From positions 896,001 to 960,000 of the forward strand of contig CBDCWI010000002.1 of NCBI GenBank assembly GCA_965223325.1: a stretch of 64,000 bases of DNA, given 5' to 3'. Source of the DNA: Candidatus Multivoradales bacterium. GTDB taxonomy: Bacteria; Acidobacteriota; Thermoanaerobaculia; Multivoradales; Multivoraceae. The position numbers and the translations under genes are program-made. Each line of letters starts with the position of its first letter. The first letter of the stretch is position 1. The notes below the pieces were generated by a model. The model worked only from the letters and a program-made list of their open reading frames with translations. It was not told where the DNA came from and did no database searches. Positions 8,415 to 41,486 of this stretch are shown here, in pieces.

Positions 8415-9461
8415 CTAGCTACGGTAGCCGTCGGGGTTGTCGACCTGCCAACGCCAGTGGTCACAGCACATCGCGTTGAGATCACGCTCGGCACGCCAAC
8501 CCAACTCGGCTTCGGCGCGCGTTGGATCGGCCCAGATCGCCACTACGTCGCCGGGGCGCCGGCCAACGACTTCGCGAGGGATCTTCTGGCCGATCGCCTC
8601 CTCGACGCCGCGCACCATTTCGAGAACTGTGGTCCCGGTACCGGTACCGAGGTTGAAGGCGTGGCAACCCGGCCTGCTCTCGAGGTACTCGAGCGCTCGC
8701 AGGTGGCCGAGGACCAGGTCCACGACATGAATGTAGTCGCGGATGCAGGTACCGTCACGCGTCGGATAGTCGCCGCCGAAGACGCGCAGTCGCTCGTGTT
8801 TTCCGGCGGCGACCTGCATGATGAAGGGCATCAGGTTGTTGGGAACTCCGCGCGGATCTTCCCCGATGCGCCCAGAGAGGTGTGCGCCAACCGGGTTGAA
8901 GTAGCGCAGGAGCGCCACTCGCCACTCGGGATCGGCCGCCACCACATCGCGCAGAATGTCTTCGATGACCCGCTTGGTGTTGCCGTAGGGACTGGCTGCC
9001 GGGCGCAAGGGCGCCGTCTCGTCGATCGGCACACTGTCGGGCTCGCCGTAGACCGTGCATGAGGACGAGAACACCAGGCTCCTGGTCTCATGCGCGCGCA
9101 TGACCTCGAGCAAGGTGAGCGTGCCGCCGACGTTGTTGCGGTAGTACTCGAGCGGTTTCTCGACCGACTCACCCACCGCCTTCCAGCCGGCAAAGTGCAT
9201 GACCGAGTCGACCGGACGTTCGCTGAACGCTCGGTTGAGCGCCCGCTGATCGCAGATGTCGACCTGGACGAACTCGAGGTCCGGTTCAAGAGCGAGCTCG
9301 CGGCCAGACTCTCTGGCGATCGCCCGCACCCGATCGACGACTTCGATGAACGAGTTCGACAGGTCGTCGATGACGGTGACTGCGTGGCCGACGCCCAACA
9401 ACTCAACGACCGCGTGACTGCCAATGTAACCCGCACCGCCGGTTACCAGAACGTGAGCCAC
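8415..9461 (-). CDS. galE: UDP-glucose 4-epimerase
   Basis: VLVTGGAGYIGSH, HFAGWKAVGESV, FSSSCTVYG, YGNTK, LRYFNPVGAH and PNNLMP motifs. Confidence 0.96.
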   Translation of the reverse strand: MAHVLVTGGAGYIGSHAVVELLGVGHAVTVIDDLSNSFIEVVDRVRAIARESGRELALEPDLEFVQVDICDQRALNRAFSERPVDSVMHFAGWKAVGESVEKPLEYYRNNVGGTLTLLEVMRAHETRSLVFSSSCTVYGEPDSVPIDETAPLRPAASPYGNTKRVIEDILRDVVAADPEWRVALLRYFNPVGAHLSGRIGEDPRGVPNNLMPFIMQVAAGKHERLRVFGGDYPTRDGTCIRDYIHVVDLVLGHLRALEYLESRPGCHAFNLGTGTGTTVLEMVRGVEEAIGQKIPREVVGRRPGDVVAIWADPTRAEAELGWRAERDLNAMCCDHWRWQVDNPDGYRS

Positions 9462-10372
9462 TACGAACCCGCTCTAAGGGAGGCGTCTTGCACCTCACGC
9501 TCGAGCTCTGTTCGCAAGACGTCCATGCGCGCCTGGTCGTCGTCGGGAACCTGCGGGTAGGTGGCGGCAAGTGAGCGGATCGAGCGCACCACGATGTCGG
9601 CAACCAGGGCCCGCATGGTGGGCTTGTGGTCGGCGGGAATGGCGTACCACGGTGCCCAGGGAACGGAAGTATGGCGGAGCGCGTCTTCGTAGGCTTCCAT
9701 ATAGGCATCCCAATGCTGCGCTTCCTCGAGGTCGCCCTCCGAGAACTTCCAGCGCTTCTCGGGTTCGACCAGCCGCGACAAGAAGCGTCGACGCTGTTCG
9801 CTTCGAGAAACGTTGAGAAAGAACTTGACGATCGCTGTGCCGTTGGCCGCCAGGTGGCGCTCGTGCGCCGCGATCGACCGCATGCGCTCGGCCCAGAAGT
9901 CCTCCTTGGCCTCCGGCATCACGACATGCGGCAGGCGCTGGCCAGCGACGATCTGCGGATGCACGCGCACCACCAACACTTCCTCGTAGTACGAGCGGTT
10001 GAAGACCCCGATCCGGCCGCGCTCGGGTACGCGCATCGAGGTACGCCACAAGAAGTCATGATCGATTTCACGAGCCGACGGTCGCTTGAACGCCATGACC
10101 TGGCAGCCGGCCGGATTCACGCCGCTCAGAAGACGTCTTATCGTTCCATCCTTACCTGCCGCATCCATGGCCTGAAAAATGAGCAGCACAGACCAACGAT
10201 CTTCCGCATAGAGCGCCTGCTGGAGCTCAGCGAGTTCGGCGACCGCGGCGCGAAGCATCTGCTTGGCGGCGCCCTTCGACGGAAACTCTCCAGGCGCTTC
10301 GGTCGGTTGCAGAGCGATCCGGAAGTCGCCGTCGGGCTCGACCAGGTAAGGGCTTGGGGCAGCTTCGAACAC
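9461..10372 (-). CDS. ppk2: polyphosphate kinase 2 family (class III-like)
   Basis: Walker A region FQAMDAAGKDG, DHDFLWR, FNRSYYEEVLVVRVH and APWYAIPADHK. Stop overlaps the galE start. Confidence 0.93.
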   Translation of the reverse strand: MFEAAPSPYLVEPDGDFRIALQPTEAPGEFPSKGAAKQMLRAAVAELAELQQALYAEDRWSVLLIFQAMDAAGKDGTIRRLLSGVNPAGCQVMAFKRPSAREIDHDFLWRTSMRVPERGRIGVFNRSYYEEVLVVRVHPQIVAGQRLPHVVMPEAKEDFWAERMRSIAAHERHLAANGTAIVKFFLNVSRSEQRRRFLSRLVEPEKRWKFSEGDLEEAQHWDAYMEAYEDALRHTSVPWAPWYAIPADHKPTMRALVADIVVRSIRSLAATYPQVPDDDQARMDVLRTELEREVQDASLRAGS

Positions 10373-10534
10373 AGCGATCTCCCTGGAGGGTCCTAGAGGG
10401 CTCGAGAAGGAAAGGGTCTCCCTACCGCCAGTCAGCAGAAGAGACCGTGCCCCGGATCATAGCTGCCGGCCAGCCGTGTTGCGTCTCTCCGGTAGGCAAG
10501 TCCCGCGAGGCTGAGACGGCTAGAGGGTGGGGCC

Positions 10535-12631
10535 TCAACCCGCCTTGTCGACGAGAATCTCGTCGTAGCGAGAGGCCTCACGGCGCAGCCAGGGTTCGAG
10601 GCGCATGAAGACATCGATGATGAAGGGATCGAACTGACGACCTCGCTCCTCGGCGAGGATCGACAGCACCCGGTCGAGATCGACTCCTGGACGGTACGGC
10701 CGCGGTGAGCACAAAGCGTCGAAGACATCGGCGACCGCAAAGATGCGCCCATGAAGAGACAGCTCGGCGGACGGACGGCCACTCGGATAGCCGCCACCGA
10801 CGTACCACTCGTGATGTTCGAGCACGATCGGAATCACTTCCGAGAAGGACTCGATGGGCTCGAGAATCCGTGCACCGAGCTCCGGGTGCATCTCCATGTG
10901 GGCGCGTTCTTTGCCCGTGAGCTTGCCGGGCTTATCGAGAATAGAGAGCGGGATCCCGATCTTGCCGATGTCGTGCAACAAGCCGCCGCGATACAAAATG
11001 TCGAGCTCAGCCTCGGGCAGACCAAGAGTGGCGCCGATCCTCAGGCCGAGATCGGCAACCCGCTCGGAGTGACCCATCGTCCACGCCGACTTTGCATCGA
11101 CCGCACGCGCCATCGCCCGCAGGGTGCCGCGCGAAAGGCTCTCGAGCTCGCCCACCAGACGCAGGTTGGCGAACGCAACGCCCACCTGACCCACTACCTG
11201 TCGCAGGCGCCGACCGTTCTCGGCCCCGAGCGTCCAGGAGGGCTCACCGCCGACCGTCACCACACCGCGCACCGCACCGGAGCTCAGAATGGGGAGGGCG
11301 TAGGCGGGACCTGCCGGAAGCCCTCCGCTCTCTACCCAGCTCGGAACTCCCTCGAGCGCCCCCGCTTCATCGGCAATGCAACGCTCGACTTCGGCGCCCG
11401 GCATCGTGCAGAGACCGACCGAGGTCTCGCGATCCAAACCACCGATCCACTGCAGGCCCCGTCGATCGTTCTGGTCGCCGAGCAGAGCGATCGAAGCCCA
11501 ACGCCCTCCCGAGATCTTGCACAGTCCAGACATTGCGGACTCGATCAATGCATCGGGCTCGTTCAACGACAGGGCAACCTGCCCGAGCTGTTCGACAGCC
11601 GTCATGGTCTCGAACTGACTGGCGAGGTTGCCCGCCATGTCATTGAACGAGGCGGCGAGGTCTCCGAACTCATCGCCGGCCGGGACGACCACCGGCGTAT
11701 CGAAGTCGCGCTTGGCGATCCTGCGAGTGCCCGCCGCCAGCTGCTCGACCGGCTGTAGGCCGCGATGAATGAGACTCGAGCTACCGAGCATCGAGGCCAG
11801 GGCAGCGGAAACGATCAGGAGGAGGAACCAGGGCGTAAAGCTCTGCAAGGGAGCGAAGACCTCAGCGTAGGGCCGGCTGACAAAGATCCATAGGCCCGCT
11901 GCCCTGGCCGGCAAGGCCCAGGGACCTACCAGGTGCTCGCCCTTCGGGCTGTCGGCCGTGAAGGGCTGAAGACCTTTCAGGCCCACCGTGTCGACGACAC
12001 CGACGGGACTCGAACTGGCGATCACGCGGCCACCTTCCTGCCACCAGTGTTGTGCCTTCGCGACGTCTGTGCGGCGCGACCCCCACCACAGAAAGTCGCT
12101 GTCGACCTTCGCAGAGGCCACTCCAATCACGCCGTCAGCGTTCCAGGCGTGGCTGATGAGATAGAAGTCTCCCTCCACCAGCACCAGAACCGGCCTCGAG
12201 AGGCGCAGCGCTCGCTTTTGCGGCGGCGACAGGCGGTGGTTCTGTTGGCCGAGCTGGATCTCGTCATGACCGGTATCCGGCAGAAAAGCGAGAGCACTCA
12301 GTCGGTCGGTGTTGGCGCTCTCGATGAGCATTTGCGCTTCGACCGAAGTCAGATCCCGGGGAGTCGTCGCCGTCTCGGAGCGCAGAGGCGCCGCCGTTCG
12401 ATCGCGCAGGTCCTCGGCCAGGAGGTTCAGTCGCTCGAGAATCGCCATGCCCAGGTCACGCGCCTCAGCCGCCACCCGGTCGCCTCCCGTGCGATGAAGC
12501 TCCGCCCGCATCGAGAACCAGGTGACCCCACCCAGCACCACGAGCGGCAGAACGCCGCACAGCACAAACAGGGAGAACACGCGGCGCGCAACGCGGCTCT
12601 TGAAGAGGCGAGGATCAAAGCGCAGACTCAT
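10535..12631 (-). CDS. membrane HAMP + GAF-like + HD-GYP cyclic-dinucleotide phosphodiesterase
   Basis: Two TM helices flank a periplasmic domain. HAMP DEFGDLAASFNDMA, then HSERV, LLHDIGKIGIP, HHEWYVGGGYP and RIFAVADVFDAL..RPYR. Confidence 0.92.
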   Translation of the reverse strand: MSLRFDPRLFKSRVARRVFSLFVLCGVLPLVVLGGVTWFSMRAELHRTGGDRVAAEARDLGMAILERLNLLAEDLRDRTAAPLRSETATTPRDLTSVEAQMLIESANTDRLSALAFLPDTGHDEIQLGQQNHRLSPPQKRALRLSRPVLVLVEGDFYLISHAWNADGVIGVASAKVDSDFLWWGSRRTDVAKAQHWWQEGGRVIASSSPVGVVDTVGLKGLQPFTADSPKGEHLVGPWALPARAAGLWIFVSRPYAEVFAPLQSFTPWFLLLIVSAALASMLGSSSLIHRGLQPVEQLAAGTRRIAKRDFDTPVVVPAGDEFGDLAASFNDMAGNLASQFETMTAVEQLGQVALSLNEPDALIESAMSGLCKISGGRWASIALLGDQNDRRGLQWIGGLDRETSVGLCTMPGAEVERCIADEAGALEGVPSWVESGGLPAGPAYALPILSSGAVRGVVTVGGEPSWTLGAENGRRLRQVVGQVGVAFANLRLVGELESLSRGTLRAMARAVDAKSAWTMGHSERVADLGLRIGATLGLPEAELDILYRGGLLHDIGKIGIPLSILDKPGKLTGKERAHMEMHPELGARILEPIESFSEVIPIVLEHHEWYVGGGYPSGRPSAELSLHGRIFAVADVFDALCSPRPYRPGVDLDRVLSILAEERGRQFDPFIIDVFMRLEPWLRREASRYDEILVDKAG

Positions 12632-12738
12632 GGCAGCTGCCGGCGGCCGAGCTGAAAGGCCGGTCCCCGCGTTGCCGCCACGCAACGATCCACAGCGCGG
12701 TGGGATTCCATGACAACCGGCAGCTCAGGCGTCACGCC

Positions 12739-13242
12739 TTAGTTGGCGTAGTCTTTGGCCAGTCCCACAAAATCTCCATCGTGGGCGCGAATGATGTCAT
12801 CTGGTGCCTTGTGGACCTGCTTATGCGTGTCTCCGTCGCGACCGATGCTGTAGAGGTCGTAGTCGGTATTGATCGGTACCTCAGAAAGGTTGTGCCGCGC
12901 CTTGCCCTTGTAGCCGTTGTCCTTGAACGGGTAGTACTCGTAAGGCTGGCCCCAGGGGTCGCGGGGAATGATCGGCGACGGGAGGTCCTCGAGACTGTCG
13001 GGAATATCGGCCTTGGCATCCATGTACAGGCTGATGTCGCGCTCGATGAGTCTGATGTCGGTGATCGCGCGCCGGACTTTGGTCTCGTGGAGGTAGCTCA
13101 AGAAGGTCGGAATCAACATCGCTGCCAGAACCCCCAGTAGCGCCACCGCAATCAGGAGTTCGAGCAGGGTGAATCCAGACGCGTCCTCGAGCACTCGTCG
13201 TAGCCGACGCAGCCGTTCGCTCATCATGCGACTGCCGTTCAT
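12739..13242 (-). CDS. prepilin-type (GspG-like) protein
   Basis: Class III signal G|FTLLELLIAVALLGVLAAM, plus GspG-like DPWGQPYEY and YDLYSIGRDG. Confidence 0.9.
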   Translation of the reverse strand: MNGSRMMSERLRRLRRVLEDASGFTLLELLIAVALLGVLAAMLIPTFLSYLHETKVRRAITDIRLIERDISLYMDAKADIPDSLEDLPSPIIPRDPWGQPYEYYPFKDNGYKGKARHNLSEVPINTDYDLYSIGRDGDTHKQVHKAPDDIIRAHDGDFVGLAKDYAN

Positions 13243-13748
13243 GGGAAGGGATCCCCGAAGCCGTCGTCGTCTTGCGGATTCTCTTCGCCGTCAGGGTCGT
13301 AGCCCGGGCGCGACGTCATCGAACCGCTGTTCAGAGATTGCTCGATGGCCAGACGCTGCTCCGCACGCTCGGCAGCGAGGACATCAGGTCGCAACCAGCG
13401 CGTCCCGCCGAACGCCAGCAGGGCCTCGCTCTTGACTCGGTAGCGCACGGAGAAGCTTGCCTCGACGTCGTCGTCGGTGAAGTTGATCTGGTAGCGCGTG
13501 ATGCCTTGTTCGGGCACCAGGAGGACTTCATCGACCCAGTAGGTGTGGACCTTGCCCGGACCGTTGATGACGGTGAACCGATCGAGCGAGAACTCGATGG
13601 AGTGCCCGTCATAGGGCCCGTCGCCGCTCTCCCAGGTTCCCAGGAGCTCGTCGGGAATCAGGTCGATGGAATCGGGTCGCTCCGCAAAGAGCTGCGGCAT
13701 TCCGACCAGGGCGACGGCAACTGCGAGGATGATGATGGTGAGTCGCAT
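13239..13748 (-). CDS. hypothetical secreted protein
   Basis: Signal peptide MRLTIIILAVAVALVG, an ELLGTW motif, a beta-rich core and an acidic tail. ATGA overlap with the pilin gene. Confidence 0.7.
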   Translation of the reverse strand: MRLTIIILAVAVALVGMPQLFAERPDSIDLIPDELLGTWESGDGPYDGHSIEFSLDRFTVINGPGKVHTYWVDEVLLVPEQGITRYQINFTDDDVEASFSVRYRVKSEALLAFGGTRWLRPDVLAAERAEQRLAIEQSLNSGSMTSRPGYDPDGEENPQDDDGFGDPFP

Positions 13749-13828
13749 GTTTGGGTGGAGTGCGTGTGAGGTTTGGTTGCGTGAACGGAGGCAGGGCACG
13801 ACCGGACAAAATCGGTCGTTCCTACTGA

Positions 13829-13860
13829 ATTATAATTAAAACAGTTTTACTTGTAAAACT
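13829..13860 (-). promoter_or_regulatory. sigma70 promoter (TTTACA-17-TATAAT) overlapped by an 8-bp inverted repeat
   Basis: On the minus strand, -35 TTTACA is at 13857-13852, a 17-bp spacer follows, and -10 TATAAT is at 13834-13829. AGTTTTAC-TT-GTAAAACT lies at 13843-13860, within an AT-rich island in GC-rich DNA. Confidence 0.75.
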
Positions 13861-13980
13861 ACACCAGCACCCGGCTCCGCTGCAGAGCGGCAGAGGGGCT
13901 CAAACGACCGCCAACACGGTCCTTCCGCCTCCCGCGTGACAGCTCGAGCCCCGGTTCTGCGGTTCGGCGGTTCGGCTCGC

Positions 13981-15474
13981 TCAGCTGTAGGGGCTGACGA
14001 TGGCCAGCCAGGCGAGCACCACGAGGCACACGAGGTAGAGCTTGAAGAGCAGCGGCACGATGAAGCGCACCCATTGCTGGTAGGGGATCTTCGCCAGCAG
14101 CAGCATGCCCATCAAAAGCGCATTGGTGGGGACCAACATGTTGGTCAGACCATCCCCGAACTGATACGCAAAGACCGCGGTCTCGGCACCGAGGCCGGTC
14201 ACCTCGGCGAGCGGCGACATGATCGGCATGGTGACGTAGGCCTGGCCACTGCCCGACGGAATCAAGAAGTTACACACGCTTTGCACGACCAGCATTCCCC
14301 AGGCGCCGACCACCGAAGCGACGCCGGACCCGAGACCCTCGACCGACTGCAACGCGCTGGCGCAGGCGTGAATGATGGTGTGAATGACCTCGGCCTCTTC
14401 GAGCACCACTCCGATGGTGCGCGCGAAACCGATCAGAATCGCGGTACCCGAGAGCCCCGCCGCCCCTTCGATGAAAGCCCGGGCACCCTGGTTGGGTGAG
14501 ATGCGCGCCACTGCCATCGCCAACAGGGCCAGGGCCAGAAAGAGCGCCGCCAGCTCGACCATGAACCAGCCGTACTGTTTGGCACCGTAGACAAAGACGA
14601 GCAGCATGGCGACGAAGGCCACCAGAACCGCAACACGGGCCGACGTCAAACGAACGTCGTCGGGCATCGAGTAGCCCTCTGAGTAGTCGATGCCAGCCAC
14701 CAGGCTCTTCGTTGGATCGTCGCGCACTCGTTTGGCGTAGCGCATGACGTGGTGTACTCCGATCGCCAACATCACAACCAACAACCCCCAACGCAACCCA
14801 GCACCGACGAGCAGGGGCTGGTCGGCGATCTGTTTGGCGATCGCCACGGTGAAGGGGTTCATCGCCGCGCAGCCGTAACCAACTCCAGCGCCAACGTAGA
14901 CGATACCCATCGCAACCACCGCATCCATCCCCATCGCCAGACACATCGCGACCAGAATGGGAATGAAGGGCATGTACTCCTCGGCCATGCCGATCGTCGA
15001 ACTGCCGACGGCGAACAAAGCCGTCATGCCGGCGACCAGGAGCACCGGGCGCGAGCCCAGGGTGTTGATCGCAGAGCCAATCAACGCATCGATTGCGCCG
15101 GTCTTCTTGATCACTTCGATCACCCCACCGACGATCAGAACGAAGAAGATCACGTCGGCCGCCGCCTCGAGCCCCTTGGGAACCAGCGTCAGGGCAGCGT
15201 GCCAGGGCAACCTCTCAGCCGAGGTGCGATGGTAGCTCCCCGGGATCACCTCGCGACCCGGACGCTCGATCGTCGCACCCACAGGAAGAGTGAGTTCTTG
15301 ACCTTCGAGCCCCGGGACGACTTCGCCGGCCGGAACCGTCACCTCGAGCGGCGCTTCAATCTCCTCGGCCACGGGAGCGAAATCGTAGGCACCGGTCGGT
15401 ATGACGTAGGTCATCACCTGCGCAATGACGATCATCAAAAAGAGCAGCACCAGGGCGTCGGGAAAGCGTTTCAT
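13981..15474 (-). CDS. yfcC: YfcC / C4-dicarboxylate anaerobic carrier family transporter
   Basis: Multi-TM protein with NPFTVAIA, NFLIPSGSGQA, TMPIMSPL and AYQFGDGLTN motifs. Confidence 0.88.
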   Translation of the reverse strand: MKRFPDALVLLFLMIVIAQVMTYVIPTGAYDFAPVAEEIEAPLEVTVPAGEVVPGLEGQELTLPVGATIERPGREVIPGSYHRTSAERLPWHAALTLVPKGLEAAADVIFFVLIVGGVIEVIKKTGAIDALIGSAINTLGSRPVLLVAGMTALFAVGSSTIGMAEEYMPFIPILVAMCLAMGMDAVVAMGIVYVGAGVGYGCAAMNPFTVAIAKQIADQPLLVGAGLRWGLLVVMLAIGVHHVMRYAKRVRDDPTKSLVAGIDYSEGYSMPDDVRLTSARVAVLVAFVAMLLVFVYGAKQYGWFMVELAALFLALALLAMAVARISPNQGARAFIEGAAGLSGTAILIGFARTIGVVLEEAEVIHTIIHACASALQSVEGLGSGVASVVGAWGMLVVQSVCNFLIPSGSGQAYVTMPIMSPLAEVTGLGAETAVFAYQFGDGLTNMLVPTNALLMGMLLLAKIPYQQWVRFIVPLLFKLYLVCLVVLAWLAIVSPYS

Positions 15475-17951
15475 GGGTTGTCCTGACGGAGAGTCGGAGC
15501 GTTGGTAGGAGCGGCGGTGAGGAGATCCTGGCTGCGTTCTGCTTCGGATTGCCAGACCGAGGTTAGACCAGCCGCTTCGACGCCGCGCGAATCAGACAGC
15601 AACTCGAGCGCCCGTCGTGGGCGACCGAACTGGCGCGCTACCTGTGCCGCCTGCAAACGAGCGGCTGGTGCACTGGACGGACCGACGTTCTGGTAGAGCG
15701 CGAGCACTCGATCGTCACCCGGAACCGGCTCAACCGCAAGCTCGTTGCTGGAGGCCCAGATCTGTTGCCCCGCTGTCGGCTGGTCATTGAAGCAGAGCGC
15801 CAATCGAGCGCGAGCACGACGGAGAGCCGGCAGGGCATCGGTAACGCGCACCAGCAGCTCCTGGCCGCGCCGGCGAGTCTCTTCGTCGCCGAGGGGTCCA
15901 TCCGCCAGCTGGCATAGCGCCGTTCCGAGAACCAGATCGGCGCTCGCGCGATCGAACAGCCGATAGAGCTCCGCTTCGCGACCGGCGTCGCCGGTTGCTG
16001 CCAGGAGACCGAGTACATAGGGCTCACCGGGCGACGCGGTCAACGCCTCGCGGAGCTTCGCTTCGGCCCCGCTCCGGTCTCCGGCCAAAAGAGCAAGACG
16101 CGCCAGCCACACCGCCGGCTGAGAGCTCAGCCGCGCACCGCGACTGAACTCGAACGACGAGCCCTCAAGCTCTTCGAAGAACGCCCGGGCCTCTGGTCCG
16201 CGACCACTGAGTGCCGCGAGGACCGCGCGATCGAAGCGGCGTGACGGATCGCGCAGATCGAACGGCCCGACCGCGAGCGCCGCGGCAGCGAGACTGCCGT
16301 CAGAGACGGGCACGCCGGCAGGCCGCACCTGGTCGACCAGGGCGGGAGCGATGTGCGCGGCCAGCACGGTCTCGAGGCTGGCGGCTTGGGTTTCTCCGGC
16401 ATCACGGTGGAACTGTGCCAGTCGCGAGCGCGTCGAGGCCGCATGCCCCGCCCGCACGCTCCACTCCGCGTCGGCGAGCCGAGCATCGACCGGCCACAGG
16501 GCGAGGGTCACGACGACGATCGCGATGAGCGCCAGCCACCGCCGCCGTCGGTCGGCCCGCGCCAGCTGCTGCCAACCGAGAGCCGCCAGTAGAACGACGA
16601 GGGGCAGGAGCGTCAGGCGTTGGCGTTCGGAGACGTAGAAGGCGAGCATTGCGGCGACCTGAACCGCCGCTAGAAGGAGAATCAGAAACCACGAGCGCCA
16701 CCTTTGAAGCGCGGTGGGCAAACCAACGGCCGCCGAGACAATCAAGAACGGGATCGGCAGCAGAGGAAACGGCAGGGCGCGCTCTCGAATCTCGGCCTCG
16801 TAGACGTCGTGAAACGCCAGTCGACGAGCGATGGCGGCTGCCTTATACAGCTCGATGCGCAACCAGCGGAGCGGATGCTCGCGCACAAAGGCCAGGCCCT
16901 TCTGGCGCCAGAACCGATTGACCTCCGACACCGTGAGGGCCTCGCCCGCGGTTGCACGGGCAATGGCGCGGTAACTGACGTGTGGATGATCGACGGTCGC
17001 CCCCAGGGCCGGGTCGAGCAGCTCGCTCTCGATCTCCTCCACCGCCAGCGGGTACGAGCCACTTCGCCCCCACGACACCGGGTTGTTGCCCTCGTAGAAG
17101 ACGGTCCCTGGGTTCATCACCGTCGGCGTCCACTCGCCGATCGCGCGCTGATTGCGCACCGTCAGAGCCGCCAGCAGGAGCACTGGGGCCAAAAGAAAAA
17201 GACCGGTGTGCACGACTCCCCAGCCGACCGGACGGATGCTGCGCGAATCGACTCCGCTAAAGACGTCGCCTTCGCCGGCGCGTTCATGACCAACCTTCTG
17301 CCGTTCTCCAAGAACGAGCCACAGGGGCACGAACACCAGGGCCGGCAGGAGGGTCGGGCGGGTCGCGATCGCTGTGGCACACAGCACCCCGGCAGCGAGT
17401 GCCCACCAGCCGCTGGCGCGTGCGGTGGCCACCGCCTGCTCGACAGTCACCAGGAGCGCCACTACCAGGAAAACCATGACCGCCTCGGGTTCGAGAATCG
17501 GCGCGTAGATGACGACTCCCGGTGACAACAGAAACGCCAGCACTCCGCACCAGGCGATCCACCACCGTCGGAACCGTCGTCTGAGCAGCCACCAGAGTCC
17601 CGCTGCCGCCAGCGCAACGAGGATCGTTTGCAACCACTCGACGGCCAGGGCGCGCTGGCTCGCATCTTCGGGTTCGGCCGTCAGCACCAGCCGATGGAGC
17701 GCCAGGTAGGCCGGACTGAAATCGACCAGGCGCTCGGCGGGCATCGAACCGGCGGCGAACTCCAGGGCGGCGGTGCTGTACTTGGAGAACGGTTCAATGC
17801 GCGTCGGCAGACCGGTCAGAGAGTCGAGGCGTGGCGCCTCGGTGACCCGGTCGAGGGTGCGCAACCAGAGAGTGCTCACCAGGGCGATGGCGAGCATCGC
17901 GAGTCCCCGGACAACGCGGTCGCGGGTTCTCGGTTCCACGGGCACACTCAT
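15471..17951 (-). CDS. GT-C fold (ArnT/PMT-like) membrane glycosyltransferase with C-terminal TPR-like helices
   Basis: Multi-TM N-half with FSPAY, AIATRPT and NPGTVFYEGNNP, followed by Ala/Leu-rich helical repeats. ATGA overlap with yfcC. Confidence 0.7.
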   Translation of the reverse strand: MSVPVEPRTRDRVVRGLAMLAIALVSTLWLRTLDRVTEAPRLDSLTGLPTRIEPFSKYSTAALEFAAGSMPAERLVDFSPAYLALHRLVLTAEPEDASQRALAVEWLQTILVALAAAGLWWLLRRRFRRWWIAWCGVLAFLLSPGVVIYAPILEPEAVMVFLVVALLVTVEQAVATARASGWWALAAGVLCATAIATRPTLLPALVFVPLWLVLGERQKVGHERAGEGDVFSGVDSRSIRPVGWGVVHTGLFLLAPVLLLAALTVRNQRAIGEWTPTVMNPGTVFYEGNNPVSWGRSGSYPLAVEEIESELLDPALGATVDHPHVSYRAIARATAGEALTVSEVNRFWRQKGLAFVREHPLRWLRIELYKAAAIARRLAFHDVYEAEIRERALPFPLLPIPFLIVSAAVGLPTALQRWRSWFLILLLAAVQVAAMLAFYVSERQRLTLLPLVVLLAALGWQQLARADRRRRWLALIAIVVVTLALWPVDARLADAEWSVRAGHAASTRSRLAQFHRDAGETQAASLETVLAAHIAPALVDQVRPAGVPVSDGSLAAAALAVGPFDLRDPSRRFDRAVLAALSGRGPEARAFFEELEGSSFEFSRGARLSSQPAVWLARLALLAGDRSGAEAKLREALTASPGEPYVLGLLAATGDAGREAELYRLFDRASADLVLGTALCQLADGPLGDEETRRRGQELLVRVTDALPALRRARARLALCFNDQPTAGQQIWASSNELAVEPVPGDDRVLALYQNVGPSSAPAARLQAAQVARQFGRPRRALELLSDSRGVEAAGLTSVWQSEAERSQDLLTAAPTNAPTLRQDNP

Positions 17952-40141: not shown

Positions 40142-40864
40142 ATGTCTGTTGAGAACACACCGATGAAGAACCGCATCAAGAACCGGCACGAACAAGGTTT
40201 CAGTCTCATCGAGATGATCGTCGTCGGGGCAGTGCTCATCACCCTCGCGGTGCTCGCCTTCCCGTCGTTCAGCAAGATGAAAAAGAAGATCGATCTGGTC
40301 TCGTCTGCCGACGAAGTGCGCTTCGAGCTGGTGCGCGCACGCCAGGAAGCGATGAAGTCGTCGTTTGACGTGGTCGTTGAGCCGATTCCGAACAGCACCG
40401 AAATGGTCGCGTGGGTCAACGTCGACGACGACGCGGACTACGCCTACAACGCCAACAACGGCGATCGCGAGCTCTTCCGGTTCATCATCTCGAACGACCG
40501 CGGAGTCACCTTCAGTGGCCTGCCAGACCCTAACGGCACCGGCAACACTCCCCCGGCGATCATGGGCCAAGGTGGCAACGGTGGCAACGGTGGCAACGGC
40601 GGTACCGGCGGAAACAACACCGTCGATCCCTCGTCCGCGATCAGCGGCTTCGAGCTCGTCGGCGAAAAACGCCTCGCGGTTTTCGACAGCCTGGGTAGCG
40701 TCACCGAACCGGGTGCGATCCGACTCAACAACGGCAGCACCAATGTGCTCGAGGTTTTCGTCCAGCGCACCGGCAACACCACGATTCGTAAGTACAACCC
40801 CACCCTCAATGCCTTCGTAAAAGACGGCACAAACGCCAGCGGCCGCAGCCTCTGGGAATGGTAG
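40142..40864 (+). CDS. FimT/GspH-like prepilin
   Basis: G|FSLIEMIVVGAVLITLAVLAFP and ADEVRFELVRARQEA motifs, with a GGN repeat insert. Confidence 0.88.
   Translation: MSVENTPMKNRIKNRHEQGFSLIEMIVVGAVLITLAVLAFPSFSKMKKKIDLVSSADEVRFELVRARQEAMKSSFDVVVEPIPNSTEMVAWVNVDDDADYAYNANNGDRELFRFIISNDRGVTFSGLPDPNGTGNTPPAIMGQGGNGGNGGNGGTGGNNTVDPSSAISGFELVGEKRLAVFDSLGSVTEPGAIRLNNGSTNVLEVFVQRTGNTTIRKYNPTLNAFVKDGTNASGRSLWEW
40571..40597 (+). repeat. in-frame 9-bp tandem repeat (GGTGGCAAC x3)
   Basis: Read directly. Encodes GGNGGNGGN. Confidence 0.85.
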
Positions 40865-40874
40865 ACCCCTTCGC

Positions 40875-41486
40875 ATGATTTCCTTCTCCTTGCCCACCAA
40901 CGAAGATCAGCACAGCGGTTCACATGGCCAGGCCGGCATCACCCTGGTCGAGATCCTGGTCTCGATTGCGGTGCTCGGCATTCTCGCTGCGATCGGGATC
41001 CCCAGGTATCACTGCCACGTCAAGAATGCCCGGTACACCGCGGCGATTCAGGACTTGAGCGGCGCGCGCGACGTCGTCGAACTGTACGAAGTCGAATACG
41101 GTCGCTTCCCCGACCATCTCGAGGATGCCTACAAGCCCGGAATGGTCTTTCCTACCACCCTGCACTACTGCTCGTCGACCGCTCCCTCGGATAATGACCA
41201 CGGGCACGGTAACGAAGACTGCAGCTTCGCCGACGTCGACAACACCGGTGCCTCGGGAGCCAAGAATCCCAACCTCATCGACCCGGCGATCGGCTACCTT
41301 CTCCGCACCACCGCCGACAGCGCACCCTGCGGAAAAGAGGCTCAGGTCGCATGGACCCATTGCTGCGGCAAAGATCCAGTGGTGGCCGAGAACGGCGACT
41401 ATCCAGGCGCCAAGGGAGGCGTCGGTGGCGGTGGCGGTGACGACGGTGACGGCGGCGGCGGCGGCGGCAAGGGCGGCAAGGGCTAG
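40875..41486 (+). CDS. type IV pilin / GspG-like prepilin, Cys-rich with Gly-rich tail
   Basis: G|ITLVEILVSIAVLGILAAIGIP and YGRFPDHLED motifs, six Cys residues and a poly-Gly C-terminus. Confidence 0.85.
   Translation: MISFSLPTNEDQHSGSHGQAGITLVEILVSIAVLGILAAIGIPRYHCHVKNARYTAAIQDLSGARDVVELYEVEYGRFPDHLEDAYKPGMVFPTTLHYCSSTAPSDNDHGHGNEDCSFADVDNTGASGAKNPNLIDPAIGYLLRTTADSAPCGKEAQVAWTHCCGKDPVVAENGDYPGAKGGVGGGGGDDGDGGGGGGKGGKG

Follow-up and report, generated by a model that had tools for sequence, protein, structure and literature searches.

What does a solitary pilin gene do beside the gene of a signalling receptor? The question is raised by a 64,000-nucleotide (nt) stretch from a Candidatus Multivoradales bacterium (contig CBDCWI010000002.1, positions 896,001 to 960,000; hereafter the window), where the gene of a prepilin resembling GspG of the type II secretion system (T2SS) lies between that of an exported or membrane-anchored protein (component X) and that of a membrane receptor with an HD-GYP domain, which is predicted to hydrolyse cyclic diguanylate (c-di-GMP). 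An earlier note on this sequence proposed that the pilin signals to the receptor and remarked that the window holds no ATPase, secretin, platform protein or prepilin peptidase. We found none there either; in this genome these genes are on the same contig at a distance of more than 2 Mb, and other pilin candidates lie with machinery genes. Judged from gene neighbourhoods across genomes, the pilin goes with the sensor input domain of the receptor, and it is most likely an input-side partner of that receptor.

Pairing of pilin and receptor genes across genomes

A scan for pilin loci confirmed 588 of 592 stretches, and the best 80 of at least 588 were analysed (median length 15.8 kb, with 49 reaching 12 kb). 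As the earlier note had anticipated, the gene following the pilin encoded a HAMP receptor, always of one sensor family, in 75 of the 80 loci; these 75 came from eight named phyla and five unassigned records. The output was a c-di-GMP enzyme in 62 of them, with 38 HD-GYP and 24 GGDEF proteins (23 with EAL), while four receptors were histidine kinases and nine were cut by a contig end, one of the nine being identified by eye from about 50 residues. The receptor was absent as the next gene in L036, L052, L086, L102 and L103. Homologues sitting mostly inside gsp or pil operons, the outcome that would have spoken against the note, were not seen: pilus or secretion machinery genes were near the pilin and its companions (hereafter the cassette) in only two of the 80 loci. 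Three loci touch T2SS or type IV pilus (T4P) machinery (L061, L147 and L155). At L155:60-17345 the pilin and a GGDEF-EAL receptor head a same-strand gspA-B-E-F-G-H-I-J-K-L-M...D cluster, which has its own canonical GspG besides the family pilin. At least two PilB/GspE-class ATPases were encoded in all 32 cassette genomes checked and a prepilin peptidase in 31, a count made with no control set.

The sensor regions of 73 receptors, compared with HAMP excluded, had a mean identity of 25%, and a profile built from the rest retrieved each one (worst leave-one-out E 1e-11); by this comparison all 73 are one family despite their differing outputs. Because the sensor is one family while the outputs differ, the pilin appears to track the input domain and not c-di-GMP as such. 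The link to c-di-GMP signalling drawn in the note stands as adjacency in 62 of the 80 loci, but what the pilin is linked to is the sensor domain, which occurs with kinase outputs too. On a sensor tree built by a quick method, output type switches, with 9 changes against 23.8 in shuffles; the starred branches force only one or two per class, so 9 is not a firm count of swaps. Identities of pilins and sensors correlated (Spearman 0.38), which is explained by shared ancestry and was not used as support.

The pairing was also examined from the receptor side in whole-genome samples of 201, 201 and 350 genomes, drawn regardless of the pair. These searches scored only some candidates per genome, three of the sensor cases are the centre genomes, and overlap with the 80 seed loci is possible. 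A family pilin preceded 26 of the 29 sensors found at E <1e-20 (12/12, 10/10 and 4/7 in the three samples), one of the 26 pairs resting on two contig ends. Conversely, 25 of the 32 pilins in the same samples preceded a sensor, and four of the other seven were additional copies next to X or to the HAMP protein described below, their genomes having a complete cassette as well. Either gene was present in only about four of every 100 sampled genomes. None of eight weaker sensor-like matches had a family pilin beside it. Among the six whose upstream protein was inspected, it was a solute-binding protein by Pfam in four and by eye in a fifth, and Cache-like in the sixth. The distant sensor relatives L117, L119, L132 and L133 have family 5 or family 8 solute-binding proteins ahead of them, a layout like that of NspS-MbaA and ChiS-CBP (PMC8050422).

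Closer to the present genome, the pilin occurred in five of 40 relatives, all five with an HD-GYP gene next, two of these with weak sensor similarity. Of two records from a plasmid collection, one held the full pair and the other a pilin before an EAL protein without the sensor. Some loci depart from the simple order: L030:8480-12609 has one pilin followed by two sensor-family receptors, a histidine kinase and then an HD-GYP protein, L102:2239-3543 has family pilins in tandem without a receptor, and L082:11433-11852 is a second GspG-like pilin after the receptor.

Parts of the cassette at this locus and in its relatives

The prepilin has an intact processing motif, as had been read from the sequence: G↓FTLLE fits G↓F-x3-E5, with cleavage predicted before base 13173. 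Matches to N_methyl and TIGR02532 were over their cut-offs and the match to T2SSG was at its cut-off (E 0.0004), while TIGR01710 for GspG scored 45.4 bits over residues 22-82 only and did not reach the equivalog cut-off of 88.85. In the predicted model (predicted local distance difference test score, pLDDT, 93), a long N-terminal helix carries the globular head of a pilin fold. The top ten structural matches at Z ≥5 were all pilins, the best being EpsG (Z 8.3, root mean square deviation 3.1, 93 aligned residues), and PulG was also among the closest. An initial homologue search returned 18 full-length proteins including the query at E ≤1e-19 before dropping to generic GspG at 1e-8, and a profile search found 839 clusters (50% identity) at E ≤1e-30. 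These sequence comparisons set the prepilin apart as a member of its own family, derived from GspG.

Across 149 family representatives, Glu5 was present in 148 and Gly or Ala at position -1 in 147. Since both are retained, the pilin is likely still competent for assembly. Glu5 in particular favours this, because it is required for homopolymer assembly and dispensable for processing, as stated in the part of the source covered (PMC4471445). Prepilin peptidase and assembly ATPases, which would process the pilin and build it into a filament, are encoded in trans. The earlier description of a lone pilin holds for the operon, where it is the only one, but not for the window, which also has two prepilin-like genes in tandem at 40142-40864 and 40875-41486 (+ strand); they are unrelated to the cassette family and contain Gly-rich low-complexity stretches.

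Several family members carry long insertions between DPW and PxN (P0098, P0107, P0108, P0118, P0137, P0149, P0160 and L110), reaching about 90 amino acids (aa) and rich in Gly/Ser or Lys/Asp where inspected, and the site is probably a tolerant exposed loop. One-off fusions to a receiver domain and to a PF00474 fragment were seen in P0136 and P0223 and could be miscalled genes. Signs of decay occur as well: L077:7337-7801 is a pilin split over two frames, L140:1087-1473 a truncated pilin followed by a receptor that is intact, and L115:1084-2304 a short receptor frame without a Pfam domain.

The receptor had been described as a protein with two transmembrane (TM) segments, HAMP, a GAF-like region and HD-GYP. 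Its two hydrophobic segments (residues 14-41 and 264-289), HAMP and HD-GYP were all recovered, but GAF gave no match on this receptor, although many orthologues match it at the same position. The sensor module was modelled with pLDDT 86 and a predicted template modelling score of 0.81 and has a predicted double-Cache (dCache) fold, a long helix and two PAS-like modules between two TM helices. A Foldseek search with this model gave 112 matches at E ≤0.001, led by dCache domains, and the top matches were dCache domains of chemoreceptors and kinases (E about 1e-6, 9-16% identity). Pfam dCache_1 matched neither this receptor nor any receptor scanned at 1e-5; its single weak match, with E 0.011, was in a paralogue. 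In the HD-GYP domain, the metal-site motifs HD, HHE, GYP and AD are present, together with the c-di-GMP-type motif RxYR. The claim that the catalytic motifs are intact holds for these, but not for the D/N position of the published consensus HHExh[D/N]GxGYP (10.1101/2021.11.05.467447, part covered), which is Val here; 41 relatives have 28 D, 12 N, 1 G and no Val.

Component X had been called a secreted protein, and its frame does begin with a hydrophobic stretch (residues 1-24). It had no Pfam or NCBIfam match and no PDB sequence match below E 0.1. Its family was found in 23 of 38 HD-GYP loci, one of four kinase loci, two of five receptor-less loci and none of 24 GGDEF loci, a distribution confounded with phylum, and its gene stands either ahead of the pilin or behind the receptor. 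On this sequence evidence, X is a recurring third part of the cassette. An acidic tail is confined to the present copy among those aligned, and a lipobox-like Cys occurs in only seven of 34 X homologues. Atlas look-alikes of one X homologue were unnamed clusters, with DUF3876 at 0.86 as a lead only.

A fourth part, also recognised by sequence, is an output-less protein with two TM segments and HAMP (2TM-HAMP), which is often fused to the pilin. It adjoins in 12 of the 80 loci and more weakly in three others, and it was not found in the present genome. Fusions of 2TM-HAMP ahead of the prepilin, with the cleavage site kept, make up eight full cases and one partial case among the 149 representatives (23-44% mutual identity). 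A HAMP-protein match was found in 16 of 23 longer pilin homologues, five of them also in that fusion set, and none of the 23 is a pilin-sensor or pilin-X fusion. The HAMP-prepilin fusions observed are P0059, P0077, P0095, P0115, P0127, P0135, P0137, P0181 and L146:4493-5719. Their predicted topology is coherent, with cytoplasmic HAMP, then the pilin helix and then the periplasmic head.

The layout of the locus is given in Table 1. Its coordinates all agree with the earlier note, including the ATGA overlap from X into the prepilin and the pilin-receptor gap given as about 107 nt, which is 107 nt exactly. A promoter ahead of the genes, also noted before, is present as a putative site 80 nt before the first ATG and is the sole such site in 5.5 kb; with 0.7 expected in shuffles, a single occurrence does not exceed chance by count alone. 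The gap of 107 nt is the longest measured, relatives having a median of 13.5 nt (range 2-42, 38 loci). It contains no terminator-like site, no unusual fold (z -0.2) and no Rfam match. Window positions 9000-16000 and nine related loci likewise gave no Rfam match, and thus no riboswitch for c-di-GMP or cyclic GMP-AMP was found in them.

Table 1. Features of the cassette locus, in window coordinates
Feature	Position	Strand	Details
Promoter-like site	13829..13857	-	sigma-70-type TTTACA-17-TATAAT; 11/12 matches to consensus
Component X, exported or membrane-anchored	13239..13748	-	169 aa; unnamed family; leave-one-out E 2.5e-12
Prepilin, GspG-derived family	12739..13242	-	167 aa; class III signal G23↓F24; Glu5
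Spacer, pilin to receptor	12632..12738	-	107 nt; receptor ATG at 12631
Membrane receptor	10535..12631	-	698 aa; TM1, periplasmic dCache-like domain, TM2, HAMP, GAF-like segment, HD-GYP
Sensor module of receptor	11783..12631	-	residues 1-283; no Pfam match; defines receptor family; single copy in genome
HAMP domain of receptor	11624..11773	-	residues 287-336; E 2e-14
HD-GYP domain (HD_5) of receptor	10625..11116	-	residues 506-669; RxYR

The flanks of the locus are ordinary, with PPK2 and epimerase genes downstream (8415-10372, - strand) and a DcuC-family transporter gene upstream (13981-15474, - strand), and the close relatives inspected appear to have other flanking genes. G+C content is 0.65 in the receptor, 0.59 in the pilin and 0.64 in the genome, values that offer no clear sign of recent transfer. 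The stretch is identical, without differences, in two public contigs, which may be from its source sample.

Possible roles of the pilin beside the receptor

Our favoured reading, held tentatively and at slightly under an even chance, is that the cassette supplies its dCache-type receptor with a dedicated GspG-derived pilin as an input-side partner, which would report filament activity. A housekeeping prepilin peptidase, encoded elsewhere, would cleave the prepilin, whose mature form would stay inserted in the inner membrane with the head facing the periplasm. Binding of the pilin to the receptor would follow, through the conserved pilin head, the membrane helix or the two together, and probably with X and, where present, the HAMP protein taking part. 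These two steps are probable, and they would be the same if the pilin were a fixed co-receptor. Because Glu5 is kept, the pilin could further enter T2SS or type IV filaments assembled in trans and come back out of them, and the free membrane pool would follow the activity of the machine; this is the weakest step of the mechanism. A change in the pool would finally pass via HAMP to HD-GYP and alter c-di-GMP. The complete proposal, in which a dedicated reporter pilin tallied by its own dCache receptor turns T2SS or type IV machine activity into a c-di-GMP or kinase output, is possible, though we would sooner expect it to fail than to hold.

A number of points weigh against the reporter reading, for which all support is genomic or predicted. 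Gene adjacency would also fit co-regulation, the loci analysed were the best 80 among at least 588, and related genomes do not count as independent cases. In the reciprocal samples, three of 29 sensors lacked an intact pilin (one was truncated, one had insertion-sequence-like frames upstream by eye and one had none), the case with the insertion-sequence-like frames being a strong sensor match, and three of 32 pilins stood without any cassette gene. Glu5 could persist for a reason other than assembly, and a head conserved above the helix would suit a static binding role equally. TM1 of the receptor is more conserved, with Pro and basic residues common to the weaker sensor relatives too, and its conservation may be generic. 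The present copy is divergent: it sits on a long branch of the quick sensor tree, its pilin has His for Lys100 (0/149 elsewhere) and Asn for Asp101 (7/149), and to these are added the odd HD-GYP Val and the long spacer. All its reading frames are whole, and it may have lost function in part. A complex prediction with the sensor module and the mature pilin scored 0.00 twice, the controls not being folded, and is no evidence either way.

If the pilin never entered a filament, its class III signal would serve as an anchor, and its conserved Asp/Arg-rich head would bind a metal, a small molecule or an envelope protein and present it to the dCache domain, in the way that solute-binding proteins serve MbaA, LuxQ or ChiS; we regard this as rather unlikely, if not by far. 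Such a role would suit the conservation of the pilin, which averages 3.3 bits in the head against 2.6 in the N-terminal helix. Several Asp, Gly, Pro, Asn and Arg positions of the head are kept in 141-149 of the 149 representatives, with profile columns Asp78, Asp112, Asp133 and Asp134 in 149/149 and Arg99 in 145; the 80 loci were chosen with a head motif, and in them head conservation is partly built in, while the 149 were chosen otherwise. Within the sensor, conservation is lowest in the distal module, a solute-binding protein fills the slot of the pilin beside weaker sensor relatives, and the scarcity of machinery near the 80 loci points the same way. Class III-anchored sugar-binding proteins are described for the archaeal bindosome in the part of the source covered (PMC4471445). 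An anchor, on the other hand, would not need the Glu5 that is present in 148/149, and three loci do adjoin T2SS or T4P genes.

The intact assembly signature, the T2SS cluster headed by the cassette in L155 and the ties of c-di-GMP to pili in many bacteria (PMC13234629, passages covered) would also be expected if the pilin served as a minor subunit in a pilus or T2SS assembled elsewhere and were expressed alongside a receptor that it does not touch and that adjusts c-di-GMP for the same behaviour. We consider this improbable: the pairing persists with the sensor through output changes, kinases included, the pilin is fused to a HAMP module in some genomes, and gene order is fixed, with the short median gap given above. 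That an ordinary gspG was displaced to the side of an unrelated HD-GYP gene by chance is scarcely credible. Database sources do call the homologues 'general secretion pathway protein G', and the fold is closest to EpsG and PulG; yet the prepilin falls below the GspG equivalog cut-off (45 vs 89 bits), a canonical GspG coexists with the family pilin in L155, and the same sensor family adjoins in 75 of 80 loci when only about four in 100 sampled genomes have either gene. The neighbourhood counts already contradict this explanation.

Relation to known pilin-sensing and receptor systems

Known cases of type IV filaments signalling to c-di-GMP rely on the major pilin, whose structural and signalling roles are difficult to tell apart. 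A pilin apparently for signalling only, beside one receptor with the enzyme attached, would reduce the problem of how such filaments signal to two genes. The cassette also suggests a partner for dCache-HD-GYP and dCache-GGDEF-EAL receptors without a known input, and it flags a large pilin family (the 839 clusters above) whose members are often labelled GspG. If the reporter reading is true, a portable reporter-pilin cassette of two to four genes exists in at least eight phyla, and in the HAMP-pilin fusions the prepilin peptidase itself would free the pilin from a signalling subunit. Full-text literature searches, with most subscription papers and all supplements outside their scope, found no description of the pilin-receptor arrangement. 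A 2026 review of pili and biofilms names PilA-PleC, and the passages covered contain nothing like this cassette (PMC13234629).

With GspG, PulG and EpsG the pilin shares its class III signal, its best structural match and the DPWG and S-G-DG...DD-type motifs, which have a role in calcium binding in T2SS pseudopilins. It differs from GspG in an extra conserved R-D...P-N-DYD segment and a C-terminal extension, and 78 of 80 loci place it away from gsp operons. The receptor has the domain order of the dCache-GAF-HD-GYP one-component phosphodiesterases, of which none had been characterised by 2021, though its sensor misses Pfam dCache_1; in the part of that source covered, 'pilin' and 'GspG' occur 0 times (10.1101/2021.11.05.467447).

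The remaining comparisons draw on the covered parts of two sources. In Caulobacter, c-di-GMP is driven by PilA in the membrane, which binds PleC at TM1 (PMC7196804). As proposed here, PilA-PleC/PleD joins an inner-membrane pilin to a two-TM receptor with a periplasmic sensor and sets c-di-GMP (predicted in our case), but it uses a moonlighting major Tad pilin and a kinase with a separate cyclase, whereas the cassette has a separate pilin family and an enzyme fused to the sensor. In Pseudomonas PilA-PilS, a pilin is likewise sensed by a membrane receptor; PilS, however, reads the major pilin through another sensor domain and controls pilA transcription, with no dedicated pilin paralogue or fused c-di-GMP enzyme (via PMC7196804). 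Accessory proteins encoded beside dCache-like receptors control those receptors (PMC8050422). NspS-MbaA, ScrB-ScrC, LuxP-LuxQ and CBP-ChiS resemble the cassette in placing an exported accessory beside a dCache-like receptor with a GGDEF-EAL or kinase output. The accessory of the NspS-MbaA type has a solute-binding fold (PMC8050422), in contrast to the pilin fold and class III signal found here, which come with two further unnamed components. The finding extends both the known pilin-sensing systems and the receptor systems with accessory proteins.

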